Origin: a phage | Sequence record: PZ295659.1 | DNA: 64,000 nucleotides | Direction: 5' to 3' (one strand) | In this document: one piece after another, positions 8,943 through 58,966 of the stretch | Numbering within the stretch: position 1 is the stretch's first letter | Layout of the letters: every line of letters begins with the position of its first letter | Notes under the pieces: generated by a model | The model's database searches: none | The model's input: only the letters and a program-made list of their open reading frames with translations | Told to the model about the DNA's origin: nothing | Translations under genes and position numbers: made by a program

Positions 8943-8960
8943 GGGAGACTTCGGTCTCCC
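8943..8960 (+). terminator. stem-loop GGGAGAC-UUCG-GUCUCCC followed by U-tract (after gene 8)
   Basis: perfect 7-bp GC-rich stem, UUCG tetraloop. Confidence 0.7.
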
Positions 8961-22941: not shown

Positions 22942-22960
22942 TTCCCATTCGGAGAATACA

Positions 22961-24532
22961 ATGAAATTTAATATCTTAAGTTTGTTTGCTCCATGGGCAA
23001 AAATGGACGAACGTGATTACAAAGACCAAGAAAAAGAAAATTTAGAATCTATCACCACACCAAAATTAGACGACGGCGCTAAAGAATACGAAGTATCTGA
23101 AAATGAAGCACAGCAAACATATAATGCTATGTTTCAGAGAATGTTCGGTAGCCAAGAACCAGGGCTCAAATCAACCCGTGAATTAATCGATACGTATCGA
23201 AATTTGATGACGAATTATGAAGTGGATAATGCAGTCTCTGAAATAGTTTCTGATGCTATCGTATATGAAGATGATACAGAAGTCGTTTCTATAAATTTAG
23301 ACAACACAAAATTTAGTCCAAATATCAAATCAATGATGTTGGATGAATTTAACGAAGTGTTAAATCATTTATCTTTCCAACGTAAAGGTTCAGATCATTT
23401 TAGACGTTGGTATGTGGATTCTCGAATTTTCTTCCATAAAATTATTGACCCTAAACGCCCTAAAGAAGGTATTAAAGAGCTTCGTCGTTTAGACCCACGT
23501 CAAGTTCAATATGTCCGTGAAGTTATTACAACCACTGAAGCCGGTGTTAAAATAGTCAAGGGTTATAAAGAATATTTCATTTATGACACATCACACGAAT
23601 CTTATGCTTGTGATGGTCGCATATATGAAGCTGGCACAAAAATAAAAATCCCTAAAGCCGCGATTGTTTATGCCCATTCTGGTTTAGTTGATTGTTGTGG
23701 TAAAAATATCATTGGTTATTTGCATCGGGCTATTAAGCCGGCGAACCAATTAAAACTTCTTGAAGATGCCGTCGTAATTTATCGTATTACTCGTGCTCCT
23801 GATCGTCGTGTATGGTATGTTGATACAGGTAATATGCCTTCAAGAAAAGCAGCAGAACATATGCAACATGTTATGAATACGATGAAAAACCGTATTGCAT
23901 ATGATGCTACTACAGGCAAGATTAAAAACCAGCAGCATATTATGTCGATGACCGAAGATTATTGGTTACAACGACGTGATGGTAAAGCGGTAACAGAAGT
24001 TGACACATTACCAGGTGCAGATAATACTGGAAATATGGAAGATGTACGTTGGTTCCGTAATGCGCTTTATATGGCTTTACGTATTCCTATTACCCGTATT
24101 CCAAGTGACCAAGGTGGTATACAGTTTGATGCTGGTACTTCTATTACACGAGATGAATTGACATTTGGTAAATTTATTCGTGAGCTGCAACATAAATTTG
24201 AAGAGATATTCCTAGACCCGCTTAAAACTAATTTAATTCTTAAAGGAATTATTACAGAAGATGAGTGGAATGATGAAATAAATAATATTAAGATAAAATT
24301 TCATCGGGATAGTTATTTCTCGGAATTAAAGGATGCTGAGATTCTGGAGCGTCGCATTAATATGCTTCAGATGGCCGAACCATTTATTGGTAAATATATT
24401 TCTCACAGAACAGCTATGAAAGATATTCTTCAGATGTCTGACGAGGAAATTGAACAAGAGGCTAAGCAAATTGAAGAAGAGTCGAAAGAGGCTCGTTTCC
24501 AAGACCCCGACCAAGAACAAGAGGATTTTTAA
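22961..24532 (+). CDS. 20: portal vertex protein gp20
   Basis: 523 aa; late promoter upstream. Confidence 0.95.
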
Positions 24533-28280: not shown

Positions 28281-28300
28281 TGGGAGACTTCGGTCTCCCA
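28281..28300. terminator. bidirectional terminator UGGGAGAC-UUCG-GUCUCCCA between gene 23 and the convergent 89-aa ORF
   Basis: identical hairpin to 8943 and 50780; T-tract downstream. Confidence 0.7.
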
Positions 28301-28608: not shown

Positions 28609-28638
28609 ATAGTATCACATACTAAATACGTTGTAAAC
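28609..28638 (-). promoter_or_regulatory. early-type promoter (TTTACA-N17-TACTAT) for the antisense 89-aa ORF
   Basis: GTTTAC -35 and TAnnAT -10. Confidence 0.5.
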
Positions 28639-28644
28639 AATCTT

Positions 28645-43917: not shown

Positions 43918-43975
43918 AACGTTTTCCTCATGTTGTTGATGGGATGATAGTATCACACATCCATGTGTTTGTAAA

Positions 43976-46063
43976 CTATCCTTGGACAAATTTAAACGGA
44001 ACTGATTCTAAATCCATTAAAGATGCTAACAATTTCAATCCTTTAGGAGCACTAGTTTTTTCTACAAATGAGGAGAACGATATCGGCTCATCTGATTCGA
44101 TTTCACCCGTCATAGCAACCACCTCACCTGTTTCCATGAGAACATCACCGTCGTAAATGACAGCTTCGTCCAACTGGTCTGAGGACATGACTTCAGCTTG
44201 AATAAATTTAAGGTTGGATTCTAAACCTGCACCAGTGTCAGATGACGCATCTGTAATTTTATTTATCTGCAAGAGAATGCCTCTAGGCAAAATAATTTCT
44301 TGCTCATTAGGGTGATTACTCAACTGTCCAGGATAAATCACGTTAACTTTATGGGCGCCATCAATAGCCCATCCAACGTTAACACGGATTTGGTCTGGTG
44401 CATGCATAGCTGTTCTTACTTGACTAGGAGAAATAGTAACACCTTCGTCATTATTGTCAATGTTAAGCTCTTTGCGAACTTCTTCAGGAGCAAGTCCAAG
44501 GGCAACGTTCTCTTTAAACCCACCGAAAATAATAGGAGCTAGTGAAGTGGAAACATAGTTTCTGAAGTAGAATACCTTATTTTTAACCATTGCTTCGTAA
44601 ATAGGCATTCTGATAGACTGAGCTCTATATAACGTTAGTCCTTCAGGTAAACGGTCTCCATTTAAAAACGCTGAATCAAGACCATCAATAGCGCGTTTAA
44701 CTTCATCTTCATCTGCAACATCGTAAAAATCTGGTTTATAACGACCTAACAGCATATTATTGATATCGGTATACGCAGAAGAGGCATATTCACGAATAGC
44801 TCGTTTTTCAGCAACAGAGTATTGATTAGGGACCCGATTCATTGTTATATTAAAGGTGCCTCTAGCCGATTCTCGTGCATAAGTATACATCACATTAGAC
44901 AAGAACGCTGATTTACGTTGTTTCCAAGTTTTTTCAGATACTTCAGCTAAAACGTCGTCAGCCAGTTGGAAATTATCACGTCTAAAATCTTCAAACCATT
45001 CGTCTTTAATAGAGTCGGCAATTTCATTTGCAGCTTCAACAAAAGCAGTTAATGCTTTAACAGATGTTGTTTTTTCAGTTTTAATTTTCTTAGCAAACTT
45101 TTCTAAAGTTGGCTTAATAACACTACCATAAGAAACTTCATCAGCAAATCTAAAGGATTCATCAATACGATTATAAATCTTATTTTCGATATCAGCAACT
45201 AAAGTGCCTTTTGCTGTGGACGATGCTTGGGCTAGTACGATTTCATATGCTTCAGGAAGTAATTCGGCTGTAGCTGGGCCACTAACTTCTTTAGCAGAAT
45301 TTTCGTATTTCTGGAATAACTCACCTTCTTGTCGGTCAGCTTCTAAAGATTGACTTGCTGCAATAGCACGACGAGAAATTTTAGTACGAGCAATAACAGG
45401 CTTATCTTTACGTTTTTCTTCTACAGCAGCAATAGAACCAGCGATAGCCGTTTCTTTGGTGACCTTTTCGCCAGTCTTTTTACTCACATAAACTTCGCCA
45501 ACATCAGAATCTACTTTCGTGTACAACTCTGTGTTAATGTTAGGGATGCCTTTAATATCTTCAATGTTGGCATTTTTACGAACCATCATCACATAGGTGT
45601 GTTTACCTGTGAATTGATACATTGCCGACAATACTTTAAAACGACCACCGGTTTTAGTAGAAACTAAACGAGCAAGAAGAGTTTGAAGCTGCTGTCCGCG
45701 TCCTTTCAATTTCTTGGTAGGGAATCGGAATAGAACTGCATCCATACGAAGAGCTTTAACCTGTTCATATACTGTATTGAAAATGGTGTTGATTGCATCA
45801 ATAGGAGCAGGACCAAGGCCATTTTTCAATTCAGCGAGATTGCCCTTTTCAGATAGACTCATAATAACAACATGAGCGTATTTGTCGCCAAGTTTAACTT
45901 GTTTTACAGCATCACCTTCGGAAAGGTAAGAGAATAAGCGAACTACGATGTTTGTATCGATATCACCAATTTTCCAGACTTGTGGAACTTTAGCTTTAGG
46001 GTTCAAATTGACGACAGGAAGACTGCCTTCAGATTCAAACACTTCATTTAATTGTTCAGACAT
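43976..46063 (-). CDS. alt: Alt mono-ADP-ribosyltransferase (virion-packaged)
   Basis: 695 aa; R-S-E ART signatures (LYRAQS, VSTSL, EQEIILP); conserved position between 54 and 30. Confidence 0.9.
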   Translation of the reverse strand: MSEQLNEVFESEGSLPVVNLNPKAKVPQVWKIGDIDTNIVVRLFSYLSEGDAVKQVKLGDKYAHVVIMSLSEKGNLAELKNGLGPAPIDAINTIFNTVYEQVKALRMDAVLFRFPTKKLKGRGQQLQTLLARLVSTKTGGRFKVLSAMYQFTGKHTYVMMVRKNANIEDIKGIPNINTELYTKVDSDVGEVYVSKKTGEKVTKETAIAGSIAAVEEKRKDKPVIARTKISRRAIAASQSLEADRQEGELFQKYENSAKEVSGPATAELLPEAYEIVLAQASSTAKGTLVADIENKIYNRIDESFRFADEVSYGSVIKPTLEKFAKKIKTEKTTSVKALTAFVEAANEIADSIKDEWFEDFRRDNFQLADDVLAEVSEKTWKQRKSAFLSNVMYTYARESARGTFNITMNRVPNQYSVAEKRAIREYASSAYTDINNMLLGRYKPDFYDVADEDEVKRAIDGLDSAFLNGDRLPEGLTLYRAQSIRMPIYEAMVKNKVFYFRNYVSTSLAPIIFGGFKENVALGLAPEEVRKELNIDNNDEGVTISPSQVRTAMHAPDQIRVNVGWAIDGAHKVNVIYPGQLSNHPNEQEIILPRGILLQINKITDASSDTGAGLESNLKFIQAEVMSSDQLDEAVIYDGDVLMETGEVVAMTGEIESDEPISFSSFVEKTSAPKGLKLLASLMDLESVPFKFVQG

Positions 46064-48891: not shown

Positions 48892-49340
48892 AAAGAGTCT
48901 CTTAATAGGTTTAACACATCAATAAATTCAGCTTCGGTTAGTATTGTATCATCTTTTGTTAGGTGGCTGGCCATGCTGTGCTTCAAAACTTTTCCTTTCG
49001 AGGCTTGTAATGCATCACGAAAGCCCCTGTTTTGGATCGCTGCTTCAAAATATGCATTTGTGTATAATTCTTTCCACGCCGGAGAGTATCTTGAAAACGG
49101 AACTCCAAGCCAGAAGAGGGTCCCACGGTCCTGAGCTCTAGCATAAGCTCGTCCAGCTTGTTGGGCGGCAAGCCCGGATAACCCAAATATACGTTTTTGT
49201 TGTTCAACATTTTTCACCTTACATCCTTGGAGAAATCCTTCAAGTCCTCCGAATTGAATACCATCCATAACAAAAGGCCATTGAGCAAAGTTACTTAATG
49301 CACATGACGGCCATGGAAAATTGCTTCTGATTTCAATCAT
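48888..49340 (-). CDS. NADAR / YbiA-like (DUF1768-type) protein, putative ADP-ribose-processing hydrolase (30.3 position)
   Basis: 150 aa; LSNFAQWPF..DG...GLEGFLQGCK resembles the YbiA/NADAR core. Confidence 0.6.
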   Translation of the reverse strand: MIEIRSNFPWPSCALSNFAQWPFVMDGIQFGGLEGFLQGCKVKNVEQQKRIFGLSGLAAQQAGRAYARAQDRGTLFWLGVPFSRYSPAWKELYTNAYFEAAIQNRGFRDALQASKGKVLKHSMASHLTKDDTILTEAEFIDVLNLLRDSL

Positions 49341-49531
49341 AGTCTTTTAAGGCTTTTGATAATTTCTAATTCAGAACTCATGCGAACGTCTTCAGTTCCA
49401 TCGACCCATAGGACGGTGTAGGCTTCTTTAATTTGAGTATTACCTAATTTAAAAGCAGGTAGAACCTTGGAAATCATTCCAGGAATACCTATACCTTTTA
49501 ACTGGACTGTTTGTGATAAGAATAGTTGCAT
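49337..49531 (-). CDS. hypothetical protein (64 aa)
   Basis: coupled ORF. Confidence 0.5.
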   Translation of the reverse strand: MQLFLSQTVQLKGIGIPGMISKVLPAFKLGNTQIKEAYTVLWVDGTEDVRMSSELEIIKSLKRL

Positions 49532-49818
49532 TAGAACCTCATCTGAAAGCCGTGCGATTTAACATTACCACCATAGATGTCAGAGGTATTGACTTCACGG
49601 GCGACACTTGGGTCGATATTGATGTCACAGTTGAGCTTAGTGATTGCCAGGGTATCACGTTCATTAACAGTACGGAATTCTACCGGGCATACAACATCAG
49701 CATAAGCCTTAATAGATTCACGAGTAGGTTGTTTGTCGGCAGGAACATCTTTACCAGCTTTAGAGAAAACAACTTCACAGAAATTTTTACGAGTATCAAA
49801 ATAAGTGGTCATAAACAT
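49531..49818 (-). CDS. hypothetical protein (95 aa)
   Basis: ORF after UUCG hairpin; coupled to downstream ORF. Confidence 0.55.
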   Translation of the reverse strand: MFMTTYFDTRKNFCEVVFSKAGKDVPADKQPTRESIKAYADVVCPVEFRTVNERDTLAITKLNCDINIDPSVAREVNTSDIYGGNVKSHGFQMRF

Positions 49819-49859: not shown

Positions 49860-50225
49860 TTAGATATCAAATTCGTTAAGAACTACATCAAAGATTGCTT
49901 CGAGATGTTCAGGTTTAGCTCGGTTGCTCAGGATGTGACGAATCCAAGTTTTAACCAGAAGTTTACGATTAACACCGTTCCAGCAAGGATGAGTACCTAA
50001 ATCACGTTGACGGAAATCGTCATCTAATGCAATTTTGAAGTTGGAACCTTCCATCGTGATTGAAACCGTGATGCCATTTTCAAATCGCATATAAACGTAA
50101 TTAGGAGTCATATACTGCTCAATTTCGCATACTGAACCGTTATTATGCTTCCATAAGCAAATTGTATCGATAGAACCAGCAATACCGTTAGAAACATATT
50201 TACGTTCGAAGTTGATGTAGTTCAT
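49860..50225 (-). CDS. hypothetical early protein (121 aa)
   Basis: early promoter + GGAGAATAAAATGAAC start context. Confidence 0.6.
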   Translation of the reverse strand: MNYINFERKYVSNGIAGSIDTICLWKHNNGSVCEIEQYMTPNYVYMRFENGITVSITMEGSNFKIALDDDFRQRDLGTHPCWNGVNRKLLVKTWIRHILSNRAKPEHLEAIFDVVLNEFDI

Positions 50226-50266
50226 TTTATTCTCCAGATGTTTAAGTTGTTTGTTGGTACAGGTCT

Positions 50267-50295
50267 ATAATAACAAAACCTGTACCAAAGTAAAC
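50267..50295 (-). promoter_or_regulatory. early promoter with inverted repeat (PeSL-like)
   Basis: GTTTAC-N17-TATTAT; IR TTGGTACAGG / CCTGTACCAA brackets the -10. Confidence 0.6.
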
Positions 50296-50299
50296 ATTT

Positions 50300-50671
50300 T
50301 TATTTGATTTTTGTCCACTTAGCTGAATCAATAACACCTTTTGCTTTAATCTTCTCGATTAATGACTCTGCACGATTTCTGGCATTTTCATACCATACAA
50401 CATCTTCAGAGTAACCTGTTTCTTCATCTTCGTAAGTTTTAGAACGAATACAACCATAAACTGTAGAATTCAGACGGTAAATTTCACCAGTGAAAAAGTT
50501 TTCGATTTCGATATGATAACAAAAATCGTCTGAAGGGCCATCAGGAGTTGTACAATAAACTACATCACCTTGAATCGAACGAACCATCCACTGTAACTCG
50601 TTAACAACTTGAGATTTATATCCATCGTGGTCACGGCATTTAATTGTAGCATTTAAATTGATAGTGTTCAT
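50300..50671 (-). CDS. hypothetical early protein (123 aa)
   Basis: early promoter + identical GGAGAATAAAATGAAC start context. Confidence 0.6.
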   Translation of the reverse strand: MNTINLNATIKCRDHDGYKSQVVNELQWMVRSIQGDVVYCTTPDGPSDDFCYHIEIENFFTGEIYRLNSTVYGCIRSKTYEDEETGYSEDVVWYENARNRAESLIEKIKAKGVIDSAKWTKIK

Positions 50672-50713
50672 TTTATTCTCCGGTTGTTTTTATTGATTAG
50701 GTGGTACAAGTCT

Positions 50714-50742
50714 ATAGTAACACATCCTACAGGAGAGTAAAC
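50714..50742 (-). promoter_or_regulatory. early promoter (GTTTAC-N17-TACTAT)
   Basis: motif. Confidence 0.6.
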
Positions 50743-50779
50743 ATCTTTTTTAAACTTTTTCTGCCCTAAACGCACAAAA

Positions 50780-50797
50780 GGGAGACCGAAGTCTCCC
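50780..50797 (-). terminator. UUCG hairpin GGGAGAC-UUCG-GUCUCCC (third identical copy)
   Basis: stem-loop plus U-tract. Confidence 0.65.
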
Positions 50798-50802
50798 TAA
50801 AA

Positions 50803-50982: not shown

Positions 50983-51251
50983 TATAAATTCTCTTTAAAT
51001 GAAAATGCAGGACTTATTGACATTGCCTGCCCAAGCCCTCAAGGGGAACATAGGTTTTTGGATATTTAACGACAGGATAACCATAAACCCGTCATCATAC
51101 CGACCACGACTTAGACAGATAACCTTTTTCTGACGCGTGATAGTACAAAATACATTCAAGAGGTACACCGTAAAATTGTCGGGGCGGTACTTCTAAAACA
51201 TATCGATTCGCAAATCGATAATCAGACAATTCGACGGCTCCTCGATTTAAC

Positions 51252-51500
51252 TTACTTCAGGGTAATAACAAAATGACGAACTGCTTTACGTGCTGCAGAA
51301 GCCAGAGGCTTAGCATATTTCAATTCATCTTTCTGAACCAGGATATCGCGAAGATCGGCTTGTGCTGGATTCAGATGTTTGAAATACTGTAAGATTTCAA
51401 GAGCTTCGGCTTCAACATCAATAGATGCGCCGTAATTGTCATGGCCATTATTCCATGCATGGCGTTGCAGTTCAAGAGCGTGTTGTAATTGTTTAATCAT
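51252..51500 (-). CDS. rIII: RIII lysis-inhibition accessory protein
   Basis: 82 aa, same as T4 rIII; late promoter upstream. Confidence 0.88.
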   Translation of the reverse strand: MIKQLQHALELQRHAWNNGHDNYGASIDVEAEALEILQYFKHLNPAQADLRDILVQKDELKYAKPLASAARKAVRHFVITLK

Positions 51501-57800: not shown

Positions 57801-57830
57801 ATAGTAACACCATCCTTGGTGTTTGTAAAC
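57801..57830 (-). promoter_or_regulatory. early promoter (GTTTAC ... TACTAT) upstream of alc
   Basis: motif. Confidence 0.55.
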
Positions 57831-57832
57831 CA

Positions 57833-58966
<1,134 letters not shown>

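Follow-up and report, generated by a model that had tools for sequence, protein, structure and literature searches.

Why should two adjacent and unrelated small genes of a T4-type phage each be introduced by the same arrangement of early promoter, leader and start context, and what might this arrangement do? The locus lies in a 64,000-nt stretch of sequence record PZ295659.1 (the window, in what follows), which comes from an RB69-like Mosigvirus, a T4-type phage. The two genes are:

50300..50671, minus strand: gene 30.8 (gp30.8), 123 aa, Pfam PF06019; hypervariable module between the two cassettes
49860..50225, minus strand: gene 30.7 (gp30.7), 121 aa, Pfam PF06919; highly conserved

The original prediction had placed two adjacent genes of ~120 aa at these positions and had described their products as not obviously similar; both genes are present there, and the proteins are unrelated (BLASTP E = 13, separate Pfam families). 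Searches of Pfam and PHROG with gp30.7 and gp30.8 returned solely families of unknown function, no relatives of either were found in the PDB, and a literature search found no paper on their function. In a time-resolved omics study of T4, the phage for which early expression has been demonstrated, 30.7 and 30.8 are classed as 'early RNA / early protein'. With 995 records gp30.7 is widespread and is not an ORFan, and the plastic module of the locus is 30.8, whereas 30.7 is widely conserved. Judging by record counts, some records of Klebsiella and Salmonella phages may carry 30.7 and lack 30.8.

The locus had also been likened to the promoter-early-stem-loop (PeSL) cassettes. In the available portions of the defining reports, a PeSL comprises an AT-rich tract, a sigma-70-like early promoter of the form TTTACW-N17-TAYWAT (T4/PST type), a stem-loop, an SD and a start codon (PMC2839356; PMC4122927), and is defined in addition by promoter and attenuator activity and by mini-circles (Arbiol et al. 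2010, PMC2839356; Comeau et al. 2014, PMC4122927).

Early promoters and terminators of the 30.8-30.7 block

The transcription signals of the block are as follows:

50776..50798, minus strand: intrinsic terminator after 30.9, upstream of P30.8; AGGGAGAC-UUCG-GUCUCCCU plus U-tract, -18.3 kcal/mol, z -3.5
50737..50742, minus strand: P30.8 -35, GTTTAC; RB69 orthologue is predicted early promoter Pe:132117
50714..50722, minus strand: P30.8 extended -10, TGT plus TACTAT (TACTAT at 50719-50714), from sequence
50290..50295, minus strand: P30.7 -35, GTTTAC; RB69 orthologue is predicted early promoter Pe:131670
50267..50275, minus strand: P30.7 extended -10, TGT plus TATTAT (TATTAT at 50272-50267), within a hairpin loop
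49830..49849, minus strand: intrinsic terminator after 30.7; GGAGGC-UUCG-GCCUCC plus UUUU, -16.9 kcal/mol, z -4.5

A GTTTAC-N17-TAnTAT promoter had been predicted ahead of each gene. Both were located, with 17 nt between GTTTAC and the -10 at P30.8 and at P30.7, and the 64-kb window holds no match to GTTTAC-N17-TANTAT other than these two (shuffle expectation 0.07). Each reads GTTTAC-N17-TAYTAT, includes a TGn element and has an A-rich tract 5' of the -35 (gcagaaaaagtttaaaaaagat at P30.8, acaaaaatcaaataaaaat at P30.7); the available part of a review of T4 early promoters describes a UP/-35/TGn/-10 architecture and an extended consensus shared beyond the hexamers (PMC2988021), and that part does not mention the 30.7/30.8 locus. 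Read with a standard sigma-70 -35 hexamer, the two sites become TTTACT-N16 (followed by TACTAT at P30.8 and TATTAT at P30.7), a spacer 1 nt below that of the window's other early promoters, which are GTTTACA-N17; the subfamily can be written as TTTACT-N16 / TATAGACYTGTACC. The RB69 orthologues of both promoters were predicted with an HMM and flagged '1 bp del' (Nolan et al. 2006, PMC1524935). The present pair thus resembles the T4 'uber' early promoters and RB69 Pe:131670 and Pe:132117 in elements, genomic positions and shortened spacer; in the RB69 annotations the pair is marked neither as a repeat nor as PeSLs. From these elements both promoters are predicted to be strong. A generic sigma-70/terminator scan scored P30.7 as TTTACT-N16 with 9/12 matches and is uninformative for promoters of the T4 type; a literature search found no paper with direct transcription-start mapping for T4.

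A hairpin and T-run equivalent to the 30.9 terminator precede P30.8 in nearly all relatives, and the 30.7 terminator closes the two-gene early block. Between the genes the -35 of P30.7 begins 4 nt past the 30.8 stop codon, which leaves no room for a terminator at P30.7. An 18-mer of the 30.9 terminator occurs in three copies in the window, and an Rfam search and folding of the 30.9 leader gave nothing.

A diverged direct repeat and its ribosome-binding sites

The two promoters lie in larger units of similar sequence, each ending in a ribosome-binding site:

50655..50759, minus strand: P30.8 cassette repeat unit, comprising A-rich tract, promoter, leader, SD/RegB site and first 30.8 codons (BLAST cross-hits, alignment, identity)
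50671..50681, minus strand: 30.8 SD and RegB/S1 target 11-mer GGAGAATAAAA; perfect target, last A is the A of ATG
50209..50312, minus strand: P30.7 cassette repeat unit, with its A-rich tract inside the 30.8 CDS, at the 3' end (BLAST cross-hits, alignment, identity)
50225..50235, minus strand: 30.7 SD and RegB/S1 target 11-mer GGAGAATAAAA; perfect target, unpaired in the promoter-initiated fold

Alignment of the upstream regions, as the original prediction had suggested, reveals similarity past the -35/-10 hexamers: the cassettes align from ~17 nt 5' of the -35 to ~16 nt inside each CDS and are 73.8% identical over 105 nt, against 54.9 ± 4.1% (maximum 63.1%) for the other early-promoter cassette pairs in the 64-kb window, within which the specificity of the repeat was judged. 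Each cassette also finds relatives' copies of the other by BLAST (75-78% over 93-105 nt, E 1e-12 to 1e-15). The shared core TAYTATAGACYTGTACCA was considered as a cassette mark before other genes and rejected, as its matches in IMG/VR lie only at the 30.8/30.7 cassettes of T4-like contigs, bar four further contigs that are mutually related, unrelated to T4-like ones and look like chance.

Such likeness might reflect only a shared functional constraint, namely the need for a strong early promoter, a good translation initiation region and a RegB site, the cassettes having no special part in recombination and 30.8 being merely a fast-evolving gene between conserved neighbours. The extended consensus of T4 early promoters is compatible with this explanation, as is the SD 11-mer, which is under selection of its own. 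The leader between -10 and SD, however, has no known consensus, yet its identity is 78.8% between P30.8 and P30.7 as opposed to a mean of 52.3% for other promoter pairs. Moreover, in JS98-like and Providencia phages the two leaders are 92-96% identical within a genome and differ between lineages, which indicates concerted evolution and counts against constraint alone.

The identical start context claimed for the two genes is likewise present: GGAGAATAAAATGAAC occurs exactly twice in the window, at 50681-50666 and 50235-50220 (shuffle expectation 0.13 with up to 2 mismatches), and SD and start codon read GGAGAATAAAATG at the 3' end of both cassettes. In the available text of Durand et al. (2006, PMC1702504), the target of RegB with ribosomal protein S1 has the T4 optimum GGAGAAUAAAA and the consensus GGAGRAYARAA, and must be single-stranded. 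The SDs of 30.8 and 30.7, two of 13 SDs of GGAG type, are the only matches to GGAGRAYARAA in the window, and both are the exact optimum GGAGAAUAAAA, overlapping the A of the ATG. Across genera the consensus is conserved at 32/43 loci for 30.7 and 36/41 for 30.8, in leaders that otherwise differ. The leader 3' of the P30.7 -10 is unstructured (0 kcal/mol) and no significant structure is found in the P30.8 cassette; in RNA reading through from upstream, the centroid fold leaves the 30.7 SD unpaired, and pairing in the minimum-energy fold is confined to its first three bases, in a weak 5-bp helix. The regB gene is annotated in RB69, and RB69 RegB cleavage sites have been published; in the present phage the gene would, by synteny, lie outside the 64-kb window.

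The two SDs resemble the T4 RegB/S1 sites in being exact copies of the optimum and in belonging to early genes with unstructured leaders; the phage presumably encodes RegB, as RB69 does. They differ in that cleavage at 30.7 and 30.8 is a sequence-based prediction for T4 and for this phage alike: the available text of PMC1702504 does not name the two genes, and no published report of RegB cutting at their T4 SDs was found. The identical start context is best explained by the RegB/S1 cleavage consensus and not merely by shared cassette ancestry.

The hairpin embedded in P30.7

The second promoter carries an additional element:

50278..50288, minus strand: hairpin 5' arm TTGGTACAGGT, in the P30.7 spacer (inverted repeat, fold, covariation)
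50254..50264, minus strand: hairpin 3' arm ACCTGTACCAA, expected to span the start region (inverted repeat, fold)

An inverted repeat of 10 bp had been predicted to bracket this promoter. The repeat, TTGGTACAGG / CCTGTACCAA, does bracket the -10 of P30.7; its perfect length is 11 bp, and the RNA stem reaches 13 bp counting one G·U pair. The RNA fold has an energy of -20.8 kcal/mol (z -4.9, 0/200 shuffles as stable), and the equivalent hairpin of other lineages scores z -4.3 to -6.2. Compensatory change has kept the hairpin in at least eight sequence classes (permutation p ≈ 5e-5), such that across classes an arm forms a duplex of -20.4 kcal/mol with its own partner as against -10.4 kcal/mol with mismatched ones. 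The window holds about five perfect, hairpin-capable inverted repeats of at least 10 bp, and the P30.7 repeat alone is therefore not unique; its significance comes from its placement in a promoter and from its covariation across relatives. An embedded hairpin at P30.8 was considered and rejected (z -0.4 in the window, and only a weak difference between own and other pairing across lineages, -10.5 vs -8.4 kcal/mol), as were significant stem-loops at all early promoters of the window, where small spacer palindromes give folds of z -0.3 to -2.3.

Generic sigma-70 promoter-like matches are not enriched in the region (32 found vs 31.2 expected), and this, with the handful of long inverted repeats in the window, is what might be said for the entire pattern being a product of chance in AT-rich DNA. 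The shuffle expectations of 0.07-0.30 for promoter pattern, start context and RegB consensus, the z-score and covariation of the hairpin and the conservation across genera leave that explanation with a negligible probability.

A palindromic operator for a dimeric DNA-binding regulator might likewise be centred on the core promoter, as this repeat is. Across lineages, however, the arms are wholly different in sequence and retain their complementarity, the arm varies from 9 to 14 bp and the loop from ~6 to ~45 nt, and Moon and TG1 use the SD itself as 3' arm. Changing arms with conserved complementarity point to selection on a nucleic-acid structure rather than on a sequence recognised by a protein. 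We regard an operator as very improbable.

In the lineage of the window the 3' arm ends ~20 nt before the 30.7 SD, so that the SD is not occluded. With the 5' arm in the spacer and the 3' arm expected over the start region, RNA initiated at P30.7 would lack the 5' arm, and the hairpin should form only in RNA read through from upstream, that is, from P30.8. Promoters placed between two hairpin arms are known from T4 genes e, soc, 49 and I-TevI (PMC3014915), where upstream transcripts can fold but those started at the internal promoter cannot; the same would hold here, given the usual distance of the start from the -10. The likeness extends in Moon, AS6 and TG1 to a 3' arm that coincides with the SD. 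The present case differs in that the internal promoter is an early sigma-70 promoter and not a late one, and in that the SD of the window's phage stays free.

The most likely role of the hairpin is to insulate or attenuate the transcript that reads through from P30.8. Alternatively, it may be a true terminator of 30.8, making 30.8 and 30.7 strictly separate monocistronic units. One PeSL stem-loop of RB49/phi1 reduced expression of a downstream reporter as strongly as the rrnB T1 terminator, according to the available part of the report, and the hairpin is present only where no upstream terminator exists. The stem, however, is followed by CAAACAACUUAAAC (next bases CAAACAAC) and no U-tract, and therefore is not a canonical intrinsic terminator; the terminator scan did not call it. 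The ~45-nt loop of Moon, AS6 and TG1 and their stem, which extends up to the 30.7 SD, also suit occlusion of the SD better than termination. True termination thus seems to us possible and rather doubtful.

Mosaicism among relatives and the proposed working of the locus

Gene replacements bounded by the cassettes had been anticipated in related genomes, and such changes are found there: 30.8 replacements, a deletion of ~1 kb in one relative (L050), and 0-2 extra ORFs in others. Compared with relatives L004, L006 and L013, the window has cassettes that are 90-99% identical around a 30.8 CDS of 65% identity, with sharp boundaries, and the edges of the allele replacement fall just past GGAGAATAAAATGAA and at the -35 of P30.7. 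Relatives L011 and L016 similarly share cassettes of 96-97.5% identity and a 30.8 of 55.7%. In both comparisons (L011 vs L016, and window vs L004/L006) the 30.8 alleles are incongruent with their flanks, and among the relatives compared three deeply divergent 30.8 alleles occupy one cassette-bounded slot. The replacement is detected by segment-wise identity only; close relatives show no breakpoint in either cassette at megablast level. In L050, a Klebsiella-phage-type relative outside the window's own lineage, a deletion of ~1010 bp fuses both cassettes at a junction that aligns to both, and the resulting hybrid cassette stands behind the 30.9 terminator and is without the embedded hairpin. 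In other genera the extra ORFs follow 30.8 and precede the P30.7 cassette; divergent alleles, optional ORFs and the deletion all share the one slot. For distant relatives, an origin of the extra ORFs beside 30.7 by duplication, as paralogues, was considered and rejected (BLASTP E = 0.006 over 32 residues, no family match).

These data bear again on the explanation by functional constraint. Sharp junctions of block replacement also occur nearby in phi25-307, at 49812 and 49334, at start codons without a promoter, and selection for intact genes together with recombination anywhere in the conserved flanks could yield part of the mosaic pattern. Against it stand the incongruence of 30.8 alleles with their flanks and the L050 deletion, a direct product of one cassette recombining with the other. 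Constraint as the whole explanation is, in our view, improbable.

The anatomy of both cassettes fits the published PeSL definition and supports their assignment, from sequence, as PeSL-type. The assignment made in the original prediction stands as regards anatomy, repeat and mosaicism; it needs amending in that a promoter-embedded stem-loop is present at P30.7 only, the stem-loop associated with P30.8 being a separate intrinsic terminator shortly upstream of the -35 (the 30.9 terminator, z -3.5). Like PeSLs, the cassettes occupy a plastic region, where they precede small early genes of unknown function, are repeated within the genome and flank ORFs that are replaced, inserted and deleted; the upstream stem-loop at P30.8 follows the PST/T4 style, and the stem-loop overlapping the -10 at P30.7 follows the RB49/phi1 subclass. 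In contrast to PeSLs, both spacers fall 1 nt short of the consensus, the P30.7 stem-loop has neither a U-tract nor the G-run/C-run make-up, 30.7 is conserved widely and is no ORFan, and the locus is known here from sequence alone. The available passages of the PeSL papers mention neither cross-genus covariation of an embedded hairpin at one orthologous promoter nor a link to RegB. Published work already covers PeSLs, the RegB consensus and the promoter predictions for RB69, and the locus is a clear example and no new kind of system.

Our current working hypothesis, which builds on the observed sequence architecture, repeat specificity, hairpin covariation, mosaic boundaries and deletion, is that 30.8 and 30.7 are governed by two tandem PeSL-type early cassettes, each driving one immediate-early gene and serving as recombination homology, and we consider this likely. 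Genes 30.8 and 30.7, in that order, would have one cassette apiece, the pair being flanked by the two intrinsic terminators. Each cassette would supply a strong sigma-70 early promoter of T4 type (A-rich UP-like tract, GTTTAC, TGn, TAYTAT), a short unstructured leader and the 11-mer GGAGAAUAAAA, presumably both SD and optimal target of phage RegB with ribosomal protein S1. Immediately after infection 30.8 and 30.7 would be transcribed and translated, and later RegB would cut inside the SD and functionally inactivate both mRNAs. The need for a stem-loop appears to be met differently at the two promoters, at P30.8 by its position behind the 30.9 terminator and at P30.7 by the embedded hairpin, the equivalent of which would occlude the 30.7 SD/RegB site in some other genera. 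Since the cassettes form a direct repeat of ~100 nt and are conserved between co-infecting relatives, they would act as portable recombination homology, permitting swaps of 30.8 alleles, gain or loss of extra ORFs and precise deletion between cassettes.

On this hypothesis the locus would be a compact natural example of the T4-type small early gene as a plug-in unit, composed of a promoter, an insulator and a ribosome site that contains its own RNase target, whose packaging doubles as recombination homology. It also suggests a rule for annotation, namely that an exact GGAGAAUAAAA at the SD predicts an immediate-early gene controlled by RegB, and the covarying promoter-embedded RNA structure offers a tractable target for mutagenesis.

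It is interesting to speculate further that the 30.7 hairpin is a conserved 'transcript-origin discriminator' on an early sigma-70 promoter and that the RegB/SD 11-mer doubles as recombination microhomology, a combination that we hold to be conceivable and on balance unlikely. Through this mark on RNA coming from the upstream promoter, read-through and self-initiated copies of the leader would differ in translation and in access for RegB/S1, overtly in Moon, AS6 and TG1, where the SD/RegB site lies inside the stem, and indirectly in the window and T4 types. If true, post-transcriptional shut-off, transcriptional insulation and modular gene exchange would be tied to one element of ~100 nt. As to microhomology, the junction in L050 and the left edge of the 30.8 swaps each lie in or adjoin the RegB/SD 11-mer.

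Locus, promoters and terminators

The window comes from an RB69-like phage of T4 type (Mosigvirus), and between 49400 and 51300 it shows 97% identity to phage PHB12 and 92% to RB69. The minus-strand gene order (rIII, 30.9, 30.8, 30.7, 30.6 and onward) is the same in RB69 and T4, and in T4 both 30.7 and 30.8 are known experimentally to be early at the RNA and protein level. The original prediction described two dissimilar proteins, each gene preceded by a promoter, and both points held: sequence comparison revealed no similarity between gp30.8 and gp30.7, and P30.8 and P30.7, the promoters of the two genes, were located as listed, P30.7 starting 4 nt past the 30.8 stop codon.

Features of the 30.8–30.7 locus
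Upstream of P30.8, minus strand: canonical terminator, GGGAGAC-UUCG-GUCUCCC-UUUU (z = -3.5)
50742–50714, minus strand: P30.8, GTTTAC-N17-TACTAT
50300–50671, minus strand: gp30.8 gene (Pfam PF06019)
50295–50267, minus strand: P30.7, GTTTAC-N17-TATTAT
49860–50225, minus strand: gp30.7 gene (Pfam PF06919)
After 30.7, minus strand: second terminator (z = -4.5)

The two promoters are the sole matches to GTTTAC-N17-TANTAT in 64 kb (shuffle expectation 0.07). Both also have a TGn element and an A-rich upstream tract, in the 'uber' UP/-35/TGn/-10 arrangement reported for early promoters of T4 (PMC2988021). With a sigma-70 -35 hexamer they read TTTACT-N16, and their spacer is 1 base shorter than in the 6–7 other GTTTACA-N17 early promoters of the window. 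They match the RB69 orthologues predicted in 2006 as early promoters Pe:131670 and Pe:132117, both marked '1 bp del' (PMC1524935). For this phage, we infer all activity of these elements. Three other minus-strand promoters of the GTTTACA type (28609–28641, 43947–43979 and 57801–57833) have a common palindromic spacer (ACAC..GGA..GTGT) and form a repeat family, the individual folds of which were not significant.

P30.8 begins a short distance 3' of the canonical terminator. The 18-nt hairpin of this terminator, GGGAGACTTCGGTCTCCC, occurs in three identical copies in the window (8943–8960 and 28282–28299, plus strand; 50780–50797, minus strand; expected 0), and therefore terminators, besides promoters, may be repeated and possibly exchangeable modules.

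A direct repeat with RegB-like start contexts

The proposal of paired cassettes was borne out on alignment, similarity extending beyond the promoter hexamers, from ~17 nt upstream of the -35 to ~16 nt inside each coding sequence. BLAST of one cassette against relatives' copies of the other gave 75–78% identity over 93–105 nt (E 1e-12 to 1e-15). Among the eight early-promoter cassettes of the window, this pair is 73.8% identical, against a mean of 54.9 ± 4.1% (maximum 63.1%) for the remaining 27 pairs; for the leader alone the values are 78.8% and 52.3 ± 5.4%. The two cassettes thus make up a direct repeat of ~100 nt, diverged but specific to this pair. Their shared core was not found before any gene other than 30.8 and 30.7, in a search that included IMG/VR. 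In four mutually related IMG/VR contigs, apparently non-T4-like at the locus, the core occurs in reverse complement beside a likewise reverse-complemented GGAGAATAA (L060 1353–1370, L065 1186–1203, L072 3907–3924 and L073 11679–11696), probably by chance.

The identical start context of the original prediction, GGAGAATAAAATGAAC, is present exactly twice in the window and, from its sequence, is a predicted site for the early-mRNA endoribonuclease RegB, which RB69 encodes. S1-activated T4 RegB requires an 11-nt single-stranded site (optimum GGAGAAUAAAA, consensus GGAGRAYARAA), and such sites are mostly the Shine–Dalgarno sequences (SDs) of early genes (Durand et al., 2006; PMC1702504). Both SDs are the exact optimum, base 11 being the A of the ATG, and they alone in the window match the consensus; none of the other 11 GGAG-type SDs shares more than 10 of the optimum's 11 bases. 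The P30.7 leader 3' of the -10 is fully unstructured (0 kcal/mol). The full consensus is present at 32 of 43 loci for 30.7 and 36 of 41 for 30.8, in leaders that otherwise differ between lineages, and the exceptions are mostly GGAU followed by an A-rich run, also reported to be cleavable (Durand et al., 2006; PMC1702504). RegB cleavage at the 30.7 and 30.8 SD sites is a prediction from sequence.

Upstream of a 523-aa ORF, GGAGAATACAA (22951–22961, plus strand) has one mismatch to the RegB optimum, C at position 9, which was never found in cleaved sites (Durand et al., 2006; PMC1702504); this C could allow a non-early gene to retain a strong SD yet evade RegB. The rIII product has been reported (2022) to bind ribosomal protein S1 and inhibit RegB activation (PMC9409239), and rIII (51252–51500) lies ~600 nt upstream of both perfect RegB sites.

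The hairpin at P30.7

At the 30.7 promoter, the inverted repeat predicted as 10 bp proved perfect over 11 bp. The RNA folds as a 13-bp stem with a 9-nt loop containing the -10 box (-20.8 kcal/mol, z = -4.9; 0 of 200 shuffles equally stable). Within P30.8 there is no significant structure (z = -0.4), and P30.7 has its hairpin in place of the upstream terminator seen at P30.8. We gathered the orthologous promoter from 40-odd loci of Tequatrovirus, Mosigvirus, JS98-like, Moonvirus, Karamvirus, Jiaodavirus, Tegunavirus, Providencia and other phages. In nearly all lineages the promoter contains an inverted repeat whose 5' arm lies directly past the -35, and the arm sequences vary.

Arms (5'/3') of the P30.7 inverted repeat by lineage class
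Window and T4: TTGGTACAGG / CCTGTACC
Further class: TTGGTGTAGGAG / CTCTTACACCAA
Further class: TTGGGTGGT / ACCACCCAA
Further class: GCTGATTGAGTGT / ACACTCAATCAGC
Further class: TTTGTAGGAGAC / GTCTCCTACAAA
Further class: ACTGAGGTTATATA / TATATAACCTCAGT
Moon and AS6: CTCCGTTGTAT / ATACAACGGAG
TG1: CTCCGAGGTTT / AAACCTCGGAG

In a composition-controlled test, spacers paired with their own downstream segments at a mean of -20.4 kcal/mol and with those of other lineages at -10.4, the own partner ranking first in 7 of 8 classes (permutation p ~5e-5); individual lineage folds gave z of -4.3 to -6.2. Such retention of pairing between differing arms indicates that selection has acted on nucleic-acid structure rather than on a protein-binding sequence.

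Because the 3' arm overlies the expected transcription start region, the hairpin would form only in read-through RNA from an upstream start. The SD/RegB site is itself the 3' arm in Moon, AS6 and TG1, which follows the logic of the classic T4 cases of a 'promoter inside a hairpin', whereas in the window and T4 types the SD is essentially free in the predicted fold. The stem has no U-tract 3' of it and so is not a canonical terminator. A read-through insulator or attenuator role has been proposed for the stem-loops of promoter-early stem-loop (PeSL) cassettes (Arbiol et al., 2010; PMC2839356), and by analogy this is the role that we consider most likely here. An AAAC(A) motif lies 3' of the 3' arm in most lineages, and predicted folds pair it with the -35 hexamer's GUUU (window 50290–50295 with about 50247–50252), so that the read-through hairpin spans the whole core promoter.

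Evidence for recombination at the cassettes

Cassette-bounded gene changes were found among relatives, as 30.8 allele swaps in two backgrounds and a deletion. While ~715 phage records contain a gp30.7 of at least 90% identity, gp30.8 exists as three deeply divergent classes of allele, that of the window occurring in only 24 of 1038 records. Three Mosigvirus loci (L004, L006 and L013) match the window at 90–99% in both cassettes and 96–97% over the last part of 30.9, yet the 30.8 coding sequence reaches only 65%; identity stops directly past GGAGAATAAAATGAA and returns exactly at the GTTTAC of P30.7. Two JS98-like loci, L011 and L016, are a second, independent case of 30.8 replacement (cassettes 96–97.5%, 30.7 97.5%, 30.8 only 55.7%). 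Within genomes of JS98-like phages and one Providencia phage the two leaders are 92–96% identical, and they differ between lineages, a pattern pointing to concerted evolution.

L050, a 167-kb genome of Klebsiella-phage type, is without 30.8 and a 170-aa ORF next to it. The 83-nt stretch at the junction aligns with both cassettes, P30.8 and P30.7, of the sister genome L049, leaving a hybrid cassette with P30.8-type spacer and leader, behind the 30.9 terminator and without a hairpin. This is a ~1010-bp deletion between the two repeats, a clean cassette-to-cassette event in a distant relative outside the window's own lineage. These comparisons provide evidence that the cassettes serve as recombination points. 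Gene-edge junctions are not unique to cassettes, since other block replacements near the locus, such as that in phage phi25-307 (49812 and 49334), have their junctions at start codons that lack a promoter.

The original prediction likened the cassettes to PeSLs, and their anatomy and behaviour fit those described by Arbiol et al. (2010; PMC2839356) and Comeau et al. (2014; PMC4122927). We judge the locus a genuine, well-supported representative of an already described class; it serves as an exemplar and is modest in what it adds. What apparently adds to earlier descriptions is that the embedded hairpin covaries between genera at a single orthologous promoter, that the cassette's 3' homology coincides with the RegB/SD 11-mer, and that 30.8 provides specific examples of allele swap and deletion.

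As further evidence of recombination at the cassettes, 0, 1 or 2 extra ORFs lie between 30.8 and the P30.7 cassette, depending on the genus. Moon-, Karam-, Jiaoda- and Teguna-type phages have 1–2 of ~160–170 aa there (L021 942–1430 and 1892–2380; equivalents in L022–L025) and a similar-sized one after 30.7; the ORFs flanking 30.7 in these types showed no detectable paralogy and no Pfam family. Two further differences concern window 49334–49370 and 49530–49818: in phi25-307 (L005) three other ORFs stand in place of 30.6 and 30.5, with junctions only 6–7 nt inside the 30.6 and 30.3 start codons, and the window is without gene 30.4, present in relatives (junction 49334/49368). Between rIII and 30.9, the gap at 50983–51251 contains a promoter-like GTGTAC-N17-TACTAT (51168–51140), the leader there giving no significant fold and no Rfam match. 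This gap is indel-rich among close relatives (breakpoints 51101–51252), and in NHEP29 it holds an additional 204-nt ORF.
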